A stretch of DNA of 64,000 nt, from positions 69-64,068 of the forward strand of contig CAMCBT010000005.1 of the NCBI GenBank assembly GCA_945873115.1. The letters are read 5' to 3'. Each line of letters begins with the position of its first letter. Position 1 is the first letter of the stretch. This document shows positions 44,221 through 45,515 of this stretch, piece after piece. This stretch comes from an uncultured Mitsuokella sp. (GTDB lineage Bacteria > Bacillota > Negativicutes > Selenomonadales > Selenomonadaceae). A model generated the notes under the pieces. That model was not told the origin of the DNA and did no database searches. It was given only the letters and a program-made list of their open reading frames with translations. Both the position numbers and the translations under genes were made by a program.

Positions 44221-44260
44221 CAAGAAAAGCCACCCGATAGAGGCAATCTGTCAGGTGGCT
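44221..44260 (-). terminator. Rho-independent terminator of the RelA/SpoT-like gene
   Basis: agccacc...ggtggct extended stem, followed by TTTTCTTGTGTT on the minus strand. Confidence 0.65.
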
Positions 44261-44270
44261 CGGAATTCAT

Positions 44271-44912
44271 TTAAGCAACGAGCGGCCAAGCTATGCGCTC
44301 AGCCCCCTTTGGGGGGAGCACCATCGCATTGTAGCGAAGACTCTTTTGAACGGCGCGCTCGATTTCCTCTGGCGTGGCACTCGCACTGCGACGAATCTCA
44401 TAGACCTCATGGGAAGCCTGCTTAATGGCAAAGGACTGAGGCGTATGGAACTGCACCTCCACCCGCATCCCCTCTGGGCTGACGAAGTGGACGTTTACCC
44501 CCTGATAAAACCTGCCGCCCCACGCATTGTGGAACTCGACTACAGCATAGCCCCGAGCCTCCAAATAGGTTATCGCCTTTGTTACAAGATGCGCATACCT
44601 TGTGGGCACCGCTACGACCGTATAGCGAAGCACGTCTGTGATGCGGGAAGCTACTTCCTTCAGGCTGACTCCCGCTGCCTTTGCCTCGCGATAAATCTTC
44701 TGGGAAAGGCTTTGAAAGGATTTGATGCGGTACTTGAGGCCAATGAGGCAGGCCCCCATGCGCTCGATACCGCGCATATCCTCCGTCACAGCAGGCTCAG
44801 CCTTCTCTGCTTTCCGAAGCAGGCGCTTTGCCAGCAGCTGAAGGGTGCTATGAAGCCCCTTTGAAATCATGATATTCTTGCTTTGAACTGTTTTTCCTGA
44901 CTCGCGATTCAT
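44271..44912 (-). CDS. stand-alone RelA/SpoT-like nucleotidyltransferase (small alarmone synthetase fold; toxSAS/Tas1-like)
   Basis: The synthetase motifs occur in canonical order. YRIKSFQSLSQK matches RxKxxxSxxxK. DVLRYTV matches DxxGxR-type. FYQGVNVH is the G-loop YxGxH-like motif. VEVQFHT matches ExQxRT-like, and SHEVYE follows. RBS GGAGGG. The alignment is by eye against B. subtilis SAS text. Confidence 0.65.
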   Translation of the reverse strand: MNRESGKTVQSKNIMISKGLHSTLQLLAKRLLRKAEKAEPAVTEDMRGIERMGACLIGLKYRIKSFQSLSQKIYREAKAAGVSLKEVASRITDVLRYTVVAVPTRYAHLVTKAITYLEARGYAVVEFHNAWGGRFYQGVNVHFVSPEGMRVEVQFHTPQSFAIKQASHEVYEIRRSASATPEEIERAVQKSLRYNAMVLPPKGAERIAWPLVA

Positions 44913-45022
44913 TTACGTCCCTCCAGACCCTTGGACTGAATGTTGTATTTGACACGACTCACAGGTGAAACAGTGGCACCTCCCTTCGAATTTTGAAAGC
45001 TCAGAGTTTTCTTTCTACTGTT

Positions 45023-45051
45023 AGGATACTATGCTTCCAATATTTTGTCAA
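45023..45051 (-). promoter_or_regulatory. candidate promoter of the RelA/SpoT-like gene
   Basis: TTGACA, 17 nt, TATCCT on the minus strand, about 100 nt upstream of the ATG. Confidence 0.45.
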
Positions 45052-45072
45052 GAAATACATGTGTTTCGAAGT

Positions 45073-45111
45073 ACAAAAAGAGCCCTGCAGTGATATATCT
45101 GCAAAGCCCTC
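45073..45111 (-). terminator. terminator of the 104-aa gene
   Basis: An 11-bp stem (3 G-U pairs), gagggcuuugcag/cugcagggcuc, followed by UUUUUG on the minus strand. Confidence 0.5.
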
Positions 45112-45122
45112 TCGTATCATGC

Positions 45123-45437
45123 TCAGTAGCTCGGATGTGCCTTGATGTAATCGACGGGGCGGGACCAGTCCACACTGACCCCTGTCTCCTCCCAGAGCCT
45201 GGTAATGGAAAGCTCGAAGCTCCTTTCATCCGCCAAGGGGTCGATTTCGACGAGGGTGAAGTCTATCAGAGAGTCATGGGGAACGCCGATGGTGTGCTTC
45301 TGATGAAGGAAATCCTCTATATGGCCCTTTGCCGTATCATTTGCGATATGGACCTCAGCCGCCTTTGCTGCGGCATCGTAATCGAGCCAGCCAAGATCCT
45401 TTCCAAAGCTGATGGCTACGCTATATGTTGGTGTCAT
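45123..45437 (-). CDS. hypothetical acidic 104-aa protein
   Basis: RBS TAAGGAG 6 nt before the ATG. It has its own near-consensus promoter and its own terminator. No family recognised. Confidence 0.6.
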   Translation of the reverse strand: MTPTYSVAISFGKDLGWLDYDAAAKAAEVHIANDTAKGHIEDFLHQKHTIGVPHDSLIDFTLVEIDPLADERSFELSITRLWEETGVSVDWSRPVDYIKAHPSY

Positions 45438-45486
45438 GTCTTGCTCCTTATATCCTGCTAGTCATAGTCGCACAAGTGCTTTCCCC

Positions 45487-45515
45487 ATTATACAAGAGGA
45501 TTCTCCTCGCGTCAA
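45487..45515 (-). promoter_or_regulatory. near-consensus promoter of the 104-aa gene
   Basis: TTGACG, 17 nt (ending in TG), TATAAT on the minus strand. Confidence 0.6.

Follow-up and report, generated by a model that had tools for sequence, protein, structure and literature searches.

The stretch of DNA analysed here, referred to as the window, comprises 64,000 nucleotides of contig CAMCBT010000005.1 from an uncultured Mitsuokella species, and the subject of this work is two small adjacent genes within it. All features of the window are given on the reverse strand unless stated otherwise. The first gene (44271..44912) encodes a 213-residue protein that we assign to the RelA/SpoT homologue (RSH) synthetase-fold pyrophosphokinases, as a signal-peptide-less member of the clade that holds SaEAS, the C-terminal domain of XopAD and the MuF-fused toxSAS proteins. 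The second (45123..45437) encodes an acidic 104-residue protein of an uncharacterised family, which is a neighbour and not a demonstrated partner of the enzyme. The two genes are flanked by a pfp-type phosphofructokinase gene (42804..44129; longest open reading frame (ORF) 441 residues) and, upstream of the 104-residue gene, by leuA (45552..47222). An original prediction had reported both ORFs between pfp and leuA, where they are indeed present, and had proposed that they form an undescribed toxin/neutraliser or defence module. Its view of the enzyme fold is upheld by the results below, and its view of the pairing is not.

The gene pair has the GC content of its surroundings. No mobile-element or defence-island signature was noticed among the ORFs around it (41000..49000), and Rfam gave no credible match in 44100..45650. 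A consensus scan found two promoter-like sites, the same two that had been described originally: TTGACG-17-TATAAT (45487..45515, 11 of 12 matches) for the 104-residue gene and TTGACA-17-TATCCT (45023..45051) for the enzyme gene. Two sites are not above the shuffle expectation (mean 1.5). At the enzyme gene site, three diverged lineages (the window and the homologous contigs L001 and L026) share the -35 and -10 hexamers while differing in the spacer, which is the pattern expected of a real promoter. Of the two, the promoter of the 104-residue gene is the stronger. The separate terminators of the original description correspond to hairpins followed by U-runs at 44210..44261, 3' of the enzyme gene (folded segment 44205-44270, -20.9 kcal/mol, z -3.8), and at 45072..45116, 3' of the 104-residue gene (folded segment 45062-45122, -22.3 kcal/mol, z -5.1); both came from folding, and a simple terminator scan with strict rules called none. 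Given that each gene has its own promoter-like site and terminator hairpin, two separate transcription units is a fair reading. The isoelectric points (pI) are 4.7 for the 104-residue protein, whose acidic character had been noted before, and 10.0 for the enzyme.

An AlphaFold2 (AF2) model of the 213-residue protein, built from 47 homologues, has a pLDDT of 91.5, with residues 1-12 disordered. A Foldseek search with this model, one of the checks proposed originally, confirmed the RSH synthetase fold, in which helices flank a central antiparallel beta-sheet. The best neighbours in the Protein Data Bank (PDB) are the four chains of 8vx3 (SaEAS), with TM scores of 0.73-0.82 and E values down to 3e-14, while Tas1, CapRel, RelP, RelQ and Rel are weaker neighbours at TM 0.4-0.6. 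There were 63 PDB fold matches at E<=1e-3, and the best 50 of these 63 are all RSH enzymes. A sequence search against the PDB also returned 8vx3 as the top match (E 1.3e-14, ~27% identity over ~190 residues). SaEAS is an exported alarmone synthetase (EAS) of Streptomyces albidoflavus that makes (p)ppGpp and (p)ppApp, carries a Sec signal peptide and has no immunity gene (Ahmad et al., mBio 2025, PMC12691689). In a second proposed check, against the Pfam model PF04607 (RelA_SpoT), the protein scores 15.0 bits (E 0.03), below the 27-bit gathering cut-off, so that a Pfam scan by itself would have overlooked it. The NCBIfam XopAD model (NF041399) aligns through its C-terminus, at model positions 1938-2129 of 2133, with an E value of 2.8e-33, and the C-terminus of the PHROG phage 'head morphogenesis' (MuF) family phrog_7625 aligns with an E value of 2.8e-24. 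Pneumococcal prophage MuF proteins are 34-36% identical to the enzyme over its residues 40-207. The enzyme domain is too diverged for the Pfam model and is recognised by more specific models and by structure.

The RSH motifs that had been read from the translation are real and occur in order as R-x-K-x3-S-x3-K, D-x-x-R, a Y-x-G-x-N/H loop and E-x-Q. In the 47-sequence alignment, R62, K64, S68, D93, R96, Y97, T98, Y136, G138, N140, E152, Q154, H156, T157, H168, Y171, E172 and R175 are invariant, and K72 is invariant or nearly so. The conserved ATP site of SaEAS consists of D121, R124, N169, E182 and Q184 (PMC12691689). These residues correspond to D93, R96, N140, E152 and Q154, so that the catalytic residues, invariant in the family, are retained in the window enzyme. 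Domain scans and the model revealed no hydrolase, TGS, ACT or LXG domain, as had been stated, and also no signal peptide and no fused antitoxin or sensor domain; PADLOC models matched neither the 213-residue nor the 104-residue protein. With SaEAS as the best match at TM ~0.8, RelP and RelQ at 0.5-0.6, and the tree placement described below, the protein lies on the toxSAS/Tas1-like side of the RSH family and is not a RelP/RelQ orthologue, as had been argued. The enzyme family can no longer be called undescribed, as it falls in the EAS group of Ahmad et al. (PMC12691689).

These structural matches bear on one alternative, namely a tRNA 3'-CCA pyrophosphokinase like FaRel2 and CapRel, or some other toxSAS that does not make alarmones, kept inactive until a trigger such as phage arrives. 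The structural matches include CapRel (E 3e-6), and a pI of 10 is very basic, both of which would suit an enzyme of this kind. However, the TM score of CapRel is ~0.45 as compared to 0.8 for the nucleotide-making SaEAS, there is no PADLOC match and no fused or adjacent antitoxin or sensor domain, and the characterised members of the clade (SaEAS, VpEAS, AaEAS and Apk1/2) all produce (p)ppGpp or (p)ppApp (PMC12691689). We consider a tRNA-directed enzyme highly improbable and an alarmone synthetase the better description.

A protein search returned 55 clusters of enzyme homologues, mostly 270-300 residues long and nearly all unnamed, the only names being those of hypothetical proteins from Selenomonas metagenome-assembled genomes. 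A scan of species-representative genomes located the family in ~50 Selenomonadaceae (Mitsuokella, Selenomonas, Schwartzia and unnamed relatives), with the closest matches in uncultured Mitsuokella and distant homologues in Streptomyces and other actinomycetes. This shows a large, previously unremarked EAS-related branch of at least 50 species in rumen and gut Selenomonadaceae. In all contexts inspected, the homologues are lone genes among varied, unrelated housekeeping genes, with no conserved small neighbour. Sec-type EAS genes are also isolated, without an adjacent immunity gene (PMC12691689). EAS were first described in 2025, and the main text of that paper covers Streptomyces, Vibrio, Shewanella, Amycolatopsis, Xanthomonas-type effectors and Streptococcus phage proteins; its text and supplements name no Selenomonadaceae, Selenomonas or Mitsuokella, although such sequences may be part of its data set (PMC12691689). 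A literature search returned no paper linking small alarmone synthetases with Selenomonas.

All but five of the Selenomonadaceae homologues have an N-terminal hydrophobic stretch (Kyte-Doolittle 15-residue mean ~1.5-2.6). In many of the inspected sequences it is followed by a small-residue site of the 'AAP' type, and an internal Met often stands directly before it. These features mark the stretch as a signal peptide or signal anchor of the Sec type. The hydrophobic stretch is missing from the window protein, L026, L001 (= P0002), L027 and L028 (= P0003 type), where the maximum Kyte-Doolittle 15-residue mean is 0.6-1.0. A neighbour-joining tree rooted with SaEAS groups these five signal-less sequences in a single clade within the signal-bearing ones, which indicates that the signal was lost once, secondarily. 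The L027/L028 form has a different N-terminal extension of 74 residues. In the species-representative scan, each genome with a signal-less copy gave a single family match; thus the signal-less gene appears to replace the exported one and not to accompany it.

Loss of a recognisable signal could also mean that the enzyme still reaches the periplasm or the outside without one, released by lysis or in vesicles, or guided by a secretion signal hidden in its disordered N-terminus, and acts there like other EAS. Export seems to be the rule among all close relatives, many different routes serve the EAS family (PMC12691689), residues 1-12 of the model are disordered, and the L027/L028 form has the different 74-residue N-terminal extension. 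On the other hand, the enzyme has no secretion-system domain, no neighbouring secretion genes were found, the neighbourhood is one of housekeeping genes (pfp, leuA, feoB), and a folded, active enzyme waiting in the cytoplasm would meet the same toxicity problem. Export by a non-Sec route is therefore unlikely, and we take it that the protein more probably stays in the cytoplasm.

The signal-less clade also differs from its relatives within the catalytic domain. Position 126 is Lys in 49 of 50 signal-bearing sequences and Glu, Glu, Glu, Asn and Asn in the five signal-less ones, the window protein having E126. The equivalent residue, K154 in SaEAS and K353 in Apk1, has been named an ATP-binding residue (PMC12691689). 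Conversely, Arg occupies position 75 in 5/5 signal-less and 0/50 signal-bearing sequences. The resulting K72-x-x-R75 spacing resembles the K-x-x-R of RelQ helix alpha2. A third candidate, the change of R71 to Gln or Glu, appeared clade-specific in the first alignment and proved variable in the larger set.

A signal peptide lost and a conserved ATP-site lysine turned acidic or neutral might be taken as signs of decay or of crippled catalysis, the gene being what remains of an exported enzyme and persisting since its product does not work. The substitution pattern argues otherwise. The ratio of non-synonymous to synonymous divergence (dN/dS) of the enzyme gene is 0.14 between the window and L001, 0.13 between the window and L026 and 0.05 between L001 and L026, at synonymous divergences (dS) of 0.5-1.0 across these three lineages. 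The other conserved motif residues are still invariant, the length is exactly 213 residues in eight independent assemblies, and the promoter, Shine-Dalgarno sequence and leader are conserved. The signal-less enzyme gene is under purifying selection and is not decaying, which leaves the remnant as the least probable of the explanations considered here.

The conserved leader deserves a description of its own. Its conserved core, at 44913..44990, belongs to a 5' leader of ~100 nucleotides and includes a GGAGGG Shine-Dalgarno sequence. Over the last 75-85 nucleotides, the window and L001 are ~93% identical, as compared to a difference of 53% at the synonymous sites of the gene. The leader was found in the window, L001-L006 and L026, and thus only in this sub-clade. 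No Rfam family matched it, and its folding is not better than that of shuffled sequences (z +1.2), so no stable fold is assigned. Three GGA-type motifs are present, one of them inside the Shine-Dalgarno sequence. An upstream reading frame whose TGA overlaps the ATG was considered and rejected, as the alignments show it is not conserved as a protein and all in-frame differences are non-synonymous. The conservation suggests, and proves nothing more, that translation of the enzyme gene may be controlled.

Co-occurrence of the two genes was scored by tblastn of the 104-residue protein over 105 fetched loci, of which ~94 hold an enzyme homologue. The 104-residue gene lies within ~6 kb of an enzyme homologue at 2 of these ~94 loci, the window and L026. 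Six independent contigs (L001-L006) have an intact signal-less enzyme gene with feoB and a small Cys-rich ORF ahead of it in place of the 104-residue gene, and the signal-less loci L027 and L028 also have no 104-residue gene. Conversely, six contigs (L007-L012) carry the 104-residue gene between leuA and murB-addB without the enzyme gene. The two arrangements meet in the window at a junction of two independently syntenic blocks (45065..45122, no strand assigned), where homology to L007/L008 ends at 45122 and homology to L001 starts at 45065. One block consists of leuA and the 104-residue gene, and the other of the enzyme gene, pfp and a flavodiiron protein gene. The breakpoint falls in the 57 nucleotides between the terminator of the 104-residue gene and the promoter of the enzyme gene. 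Divergence within the enzyme block pairs L001 with L026 (dS 0.48) and places the window outside them (dS ~0.95), which implies that the adjacency was probably ancestral to all three; judged from these sequences, it was then probably lost in L001 without relaxed selection on the enzyme. The dS values of the 104-residue gene suggest that L001 and L007 are not one organism.

A separate observation concerns the other side of the 104-residue gene. Between the window and L007, leuA has a dS of 0.23, yet the 104-residue gene of the same contig is saturated (proportion of synonymous differences, pS, 0.73). This contrast suggests a recombination boundary in the intergenic region between leuA and the 104-residue gene (45437..45552).

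The synteny bears on the module proposed originally, in which a growth-arresting toxSAS would be held in check by an abundant acidic neutraliser (antitoxin or immunity protein), the two forming a toxin/neutraliser or phage-defence module with two promoters. Much about the locus is attractive in this respect. A basic enzyme (pI 10.0) adjoins a small acidic protein (pI 4.7) whose gene has the stronger promoter, the enzyme has lost the export signal that protects the producers of its relatives, the adjacency is kept in the window and L026 at a dS of ~1, and both families are frequent in Selenomonadaceae. However, co-conservation was not found, as the two genes meet at so few loci, each occurs without the other, and the synteny breakpoint lies exactly between them. 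The enzyme is intact in L001-L006, where feoB replaces the 104-residue gene, with a dN/dS of 0.05, and the L027/L028 loci manage without the gene as well. The 104-residue gene, in turn, stands without the enzyme beside leuA-murB and, in four other contexts, beside the 6S RNA gene. Its product has no PADLOC, Pfam or NCBIfam match, no HD motif and no PDB fold match, 6ox6 included. It is also unrelated to the small genes that follow the pneumococcal MuF-RSH toxins, where an HD phosphohydrolase is found, and its remote relatives occur in phage head modules where MuF lacks an RSH domain. A dedicated toxin/neutraliser pair is therefore very unlikely. The placement of the 104-residue gene beside the enzyme gene appears to be a chance adjacency arising from local gene order, and adjacency in two related lineages is the only tie between the 104-residue family and RSH enzymes.

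The 104-residue protein is well conserved in its own right. It has 75 close homologues, nearly all exactly 104 residues long and annotated only as hypothetical proteins in Selenomonas or Selenomonadaceae, in which a C-terminal VDWSRPV motif is invariant. The dN/dS of the gene is 0.03-0.07, consistent with strong purifying selection. As stated in the original prediction, no HD hydrolase motif and no recognised antitoxin could be identified in it, with no match in Pfam, NCBIfam or PADLOC and no Pfam family in any of ten family members scanned. The proposed structural check brought nothing to support a neutraliser, in that the AF2 model (pLDDT 92) has no neighbour in the PDB (best E 0.7), a set that includes the Tas1-immunity complex 6ox6. 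The model does match a viral structure in BFVD, the uncharacterised protein S5M924 of Bacillus phage Shanette (TM 0.78, E 6e-8). A profile search of 1.84 billion representative proteins gave 173 clusters, nearly all of 40-156 residues, and 'hypothetical protein' was the only name returned by the wider search. One remote relative (L115 4001-4315) is part of a phage head module, where it is flanked by the MuF gene and the scaffold gene; the MuF protein beside it has no RSH domain, and the small proteins that follow pneumococcal MuF-RSH have no similarity to the 104-residue family. A tblastn search of phage genomes with the remote member P0211 gave no match.

The only recurring neighbour of the family is the 6S RNA gene (ssrS), which is found divergently, ~200-400 nucleotides upstream of the 104-residue gene, in four otherwise differently flanked contexts. 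These are L109 (3643-3822, reverse strand, 75.6 bits; homologue starting at 4001), L106 (3625-3804, reverse strand, 67 bits; start 4001), L013 (4601-4748, reverse strand, 43.8 bits, E 1.6e-7; start 5001) and L112 (3598-3768, reverse strand, 39 bits, E 2e-6; start 4001). The arrangement is not present in the window, L007 or L026, where leuA lies upstream instead, and there is no 6S RNA anywhere in the window. The recurrence hints that the function of the 104-residue family may be linked to 6S RNA or RNA polymerase. Other neighbours were noted at individual loci. In L106-L108, a small gene and a YoeB toxin gene follow the 104-residue gene (L106 4349-4823), beyond which L106 and L107 have a serine recombinase gene and phage-like genes (L106 4904-6280), a mobile element having inserted there. 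A Ppx/GppA phosphatase gene (L109 2678-3601) is upstream of the 6S RNA/104-residue gene pair in L109. The YoeB and Ppx/GppA neighbours are probably coincidental. A 277-residue gene after the 104-residue homologue in L013-L016 was considered as an enzyme homologue because of its size and is unrelated (E 9.6). Taken together, the 104-residue gene is best read as an independent gene with its own transcript, belonging to a broad family of uncharacterised small proteins.

A variant of the neutraliser idea does not depend on linkage. The signal-less enzyme could be fully active and potentially lethal in the cytoplasm, and the 104-residue family could neutralise Selenomonadaceae EAS in trans from unlinked loci, the window being a rare linked state. 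If true, this would make the 104-residue protein the 'missing' cytoplasmic immunity factor that was sought but not found in the EAS paper. The co-occurrence counts speak for the neighbourhoods of the fetched loci, so that action from elsewhere in the genome would escape them; we assign this version a very low probability. The evidence favours more a milder reading, in which an exported alarmone synthetase of toxin grade was converted naturally, in the signal-less clade, to an intracellular signalling enzyme.

In this conversion, which we hold to be somewhat more probable than all other explanations combined, the window encodes a cytoplasmic alarmone synthetase derived from an exported one, without a dedicated protein neutraliser. 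The EAS family, to which SaEAS, the MuF toxSAS domains and the C-terminal domain of XopAD belong, has a Selenomonadaceae branch, and the 213-residue enzyme descends from this branch. Relatives with a Sec-type signal or anchor would act outside the cytoplasm. One Mitsuokella sub-clade, that of the window, lost the signal segment once, and with the segment gone the protein is expected to stay in the cytoplasm. There ATP would most likely be its pyrophosphate donor and the 3'-OH of a purine nucleotide the acceptor, yielding (p)ppGpp and/or (p)ppApp; GTP/GDP and/or ATP/ADP are the likely acceptors because all characterised members of the clade use them. In this way an exported enzyme would have been recruited as a small alarmone synthetase. 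Self-poisoning would probably be avoided by restrained expression, to which the weaker promoter and the strong conservation of the 5' leader point, and/or by a retuned active site, as suggested by the replacement of the ATP-site Lys126 with Glu or Asn and the new Arg75, and not by a dedicated neutraliser.

Several points weigh against this account. Stripped of their signal peptides, SaEAS and VpEAS are strongly toxic when in the cytoplasm (PMC12691689), so that a natural form with neither signal nor immunity gene needs an explanation, and the one given above is what we infer. The activity, product and localisation of the enzyme are predictions from its sequence and model, and departure from the cell by a non-Sec route, discussed above, would change the last of these. 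Glu is also found at position 126 of L078, a distant homologue with an N-terminal part that resembles MuF by eye; the change from Lys to Glu may therefore not attenuate the enzyme, which weakens this part of the argument. In addition, the adjacency with the 104-residue gene persists in two lineages, the window and L026, that are a dS of ~1 apart, and a 104-residue protein encoded elsewhere may act in trans, its presence having been scored at the fetched loci.

The characterised enzymes of this class are lethal when kept in the cytoplasm, and for this reason a clade that is under purifying selection and has neither signal nor recognisable immunity gene offers a natural experiment in the taming of such an enzyme or its re-use for signalling inside the cell. 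In addition, recognising the attractive toxin/neutraliser arrangement as a chance adjacency saves experimental effort.

The start of pfp is probably the internal ATG at 44093 (MIGIKN...), in agreement with the 428-residue gene called in L001. An ordinary T-box leader precedes leuA (47264..47504), a second ordinary T-box leader is found at 3385..3616, and two tRNA genes lie at 41260..41333 and 52577..52658. A 182-residue ORF upstream of leuA (47617..48165) has a signal-peptide-like N-terminus followed by a long, extremely charged Glu/Lys/Arg repeat region (EKERREREKRE...); in the corresponding stretch of L007 there are two genes of similar size (185 and 180 residues) without Pfam matches.

Compared with known systems, the window enzyme is like the housekeeping synthetases RelP and RelQ in that it stands alone, has ~210 residues and is apparently cytoplasmic. 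It differs from them in fold similarity (TM 0.5-0.6, as against 0.8 for SaEAS) and in being nested within an exported clade, to which RelP and RelQ are not orthologous. With Tas1/Apk1-Tis1, CapRel and the FaRel-type toxSAS it shares the RSH synthetase fold, although the TM scores of Tas1 and CapRel are only ~0.45-0.5, and it has no PAAR/Rhs or other delivery domain, no conserved adjacent antitoxin or immunity gene and no PADLOC match. In toxSAS modules (FaRel, PhRel, CapRel, Tas1-Tis1, Apk2-Aph1), a cognate neutraliser gene is conserved beside the enzyme gene and normally shares its operon, whereas the two genes of the window each have their own promoter and terminator. The neutralisers of such modules include HD or SAH hydrolases, Tis1-like binders or fused pseudo-zinc-finger domains, and the 104-residue protein matches no known class.

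The phage MuF-fused toxSAS of pneumococcal prophages (Apk2-type) carry a MuF domain that the window enzyme does not have. In those phages, an HD phosphohydrolase gene, presumably the immunity gene, lies one small gene after the toxin, and nothing similar is seen at the window locus. In the XopAD/SKWP (RipS) type III effectors, the whole catalytic domain of the window enzyme aligns to the C-terminal Rel-like domain. Unlike these effectors, the window protein has 213 residues instead of >2000, with no SKWP repeats or type III context, and against the whole-protein XopAD model it scores 114 bits at a cut-off of 2000. The window enzyme is thus not a XopAD effector, nor is it a demonstrated toxSAS toxin-antitoxin module.

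A close comparison is with the signal-bearing homologues of Mitsuokella multacida, M. jalaludinii, Selenomonas ruminantium, S. bovis, Schwartzia and other Selenomonadaceae, which are 45-59% identical to the window enzyme over the whole catalytic domain. They have the same invariant motifs and are likewise monocistronic in housekeeping surroundings, and differ in their hydrophobic signal or anchor, a linker of ~40-100 residues, K126 and the absence of R75. SaEAS, whose structure is the nearest solved one, has the same fold (TM 0.78-0.81) and the same catalytic D, R, N, E and Q. Its crystallised signal-less construct, G36-P248, has 213 residues, so that the mature enzyme and the window protein are of equal size, and members of the family are isolated genes without immunity genes. 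In contrast to SaEAS, the window protein has no signal peptide, has E126 in place of K154, comes from a diderm Firmicute (Mitsuokella/Selenomonadaceae) and has a product that is predicted only. Some Streptomyces relatives of EAS are also without signal peptides (PMC12691689). The window enzyme is homologous to EAS enzymes and has no export determinant, the feature that defines them; by definition it is thus not itself an EAS, and it is best called a signal-less EAS homologue.

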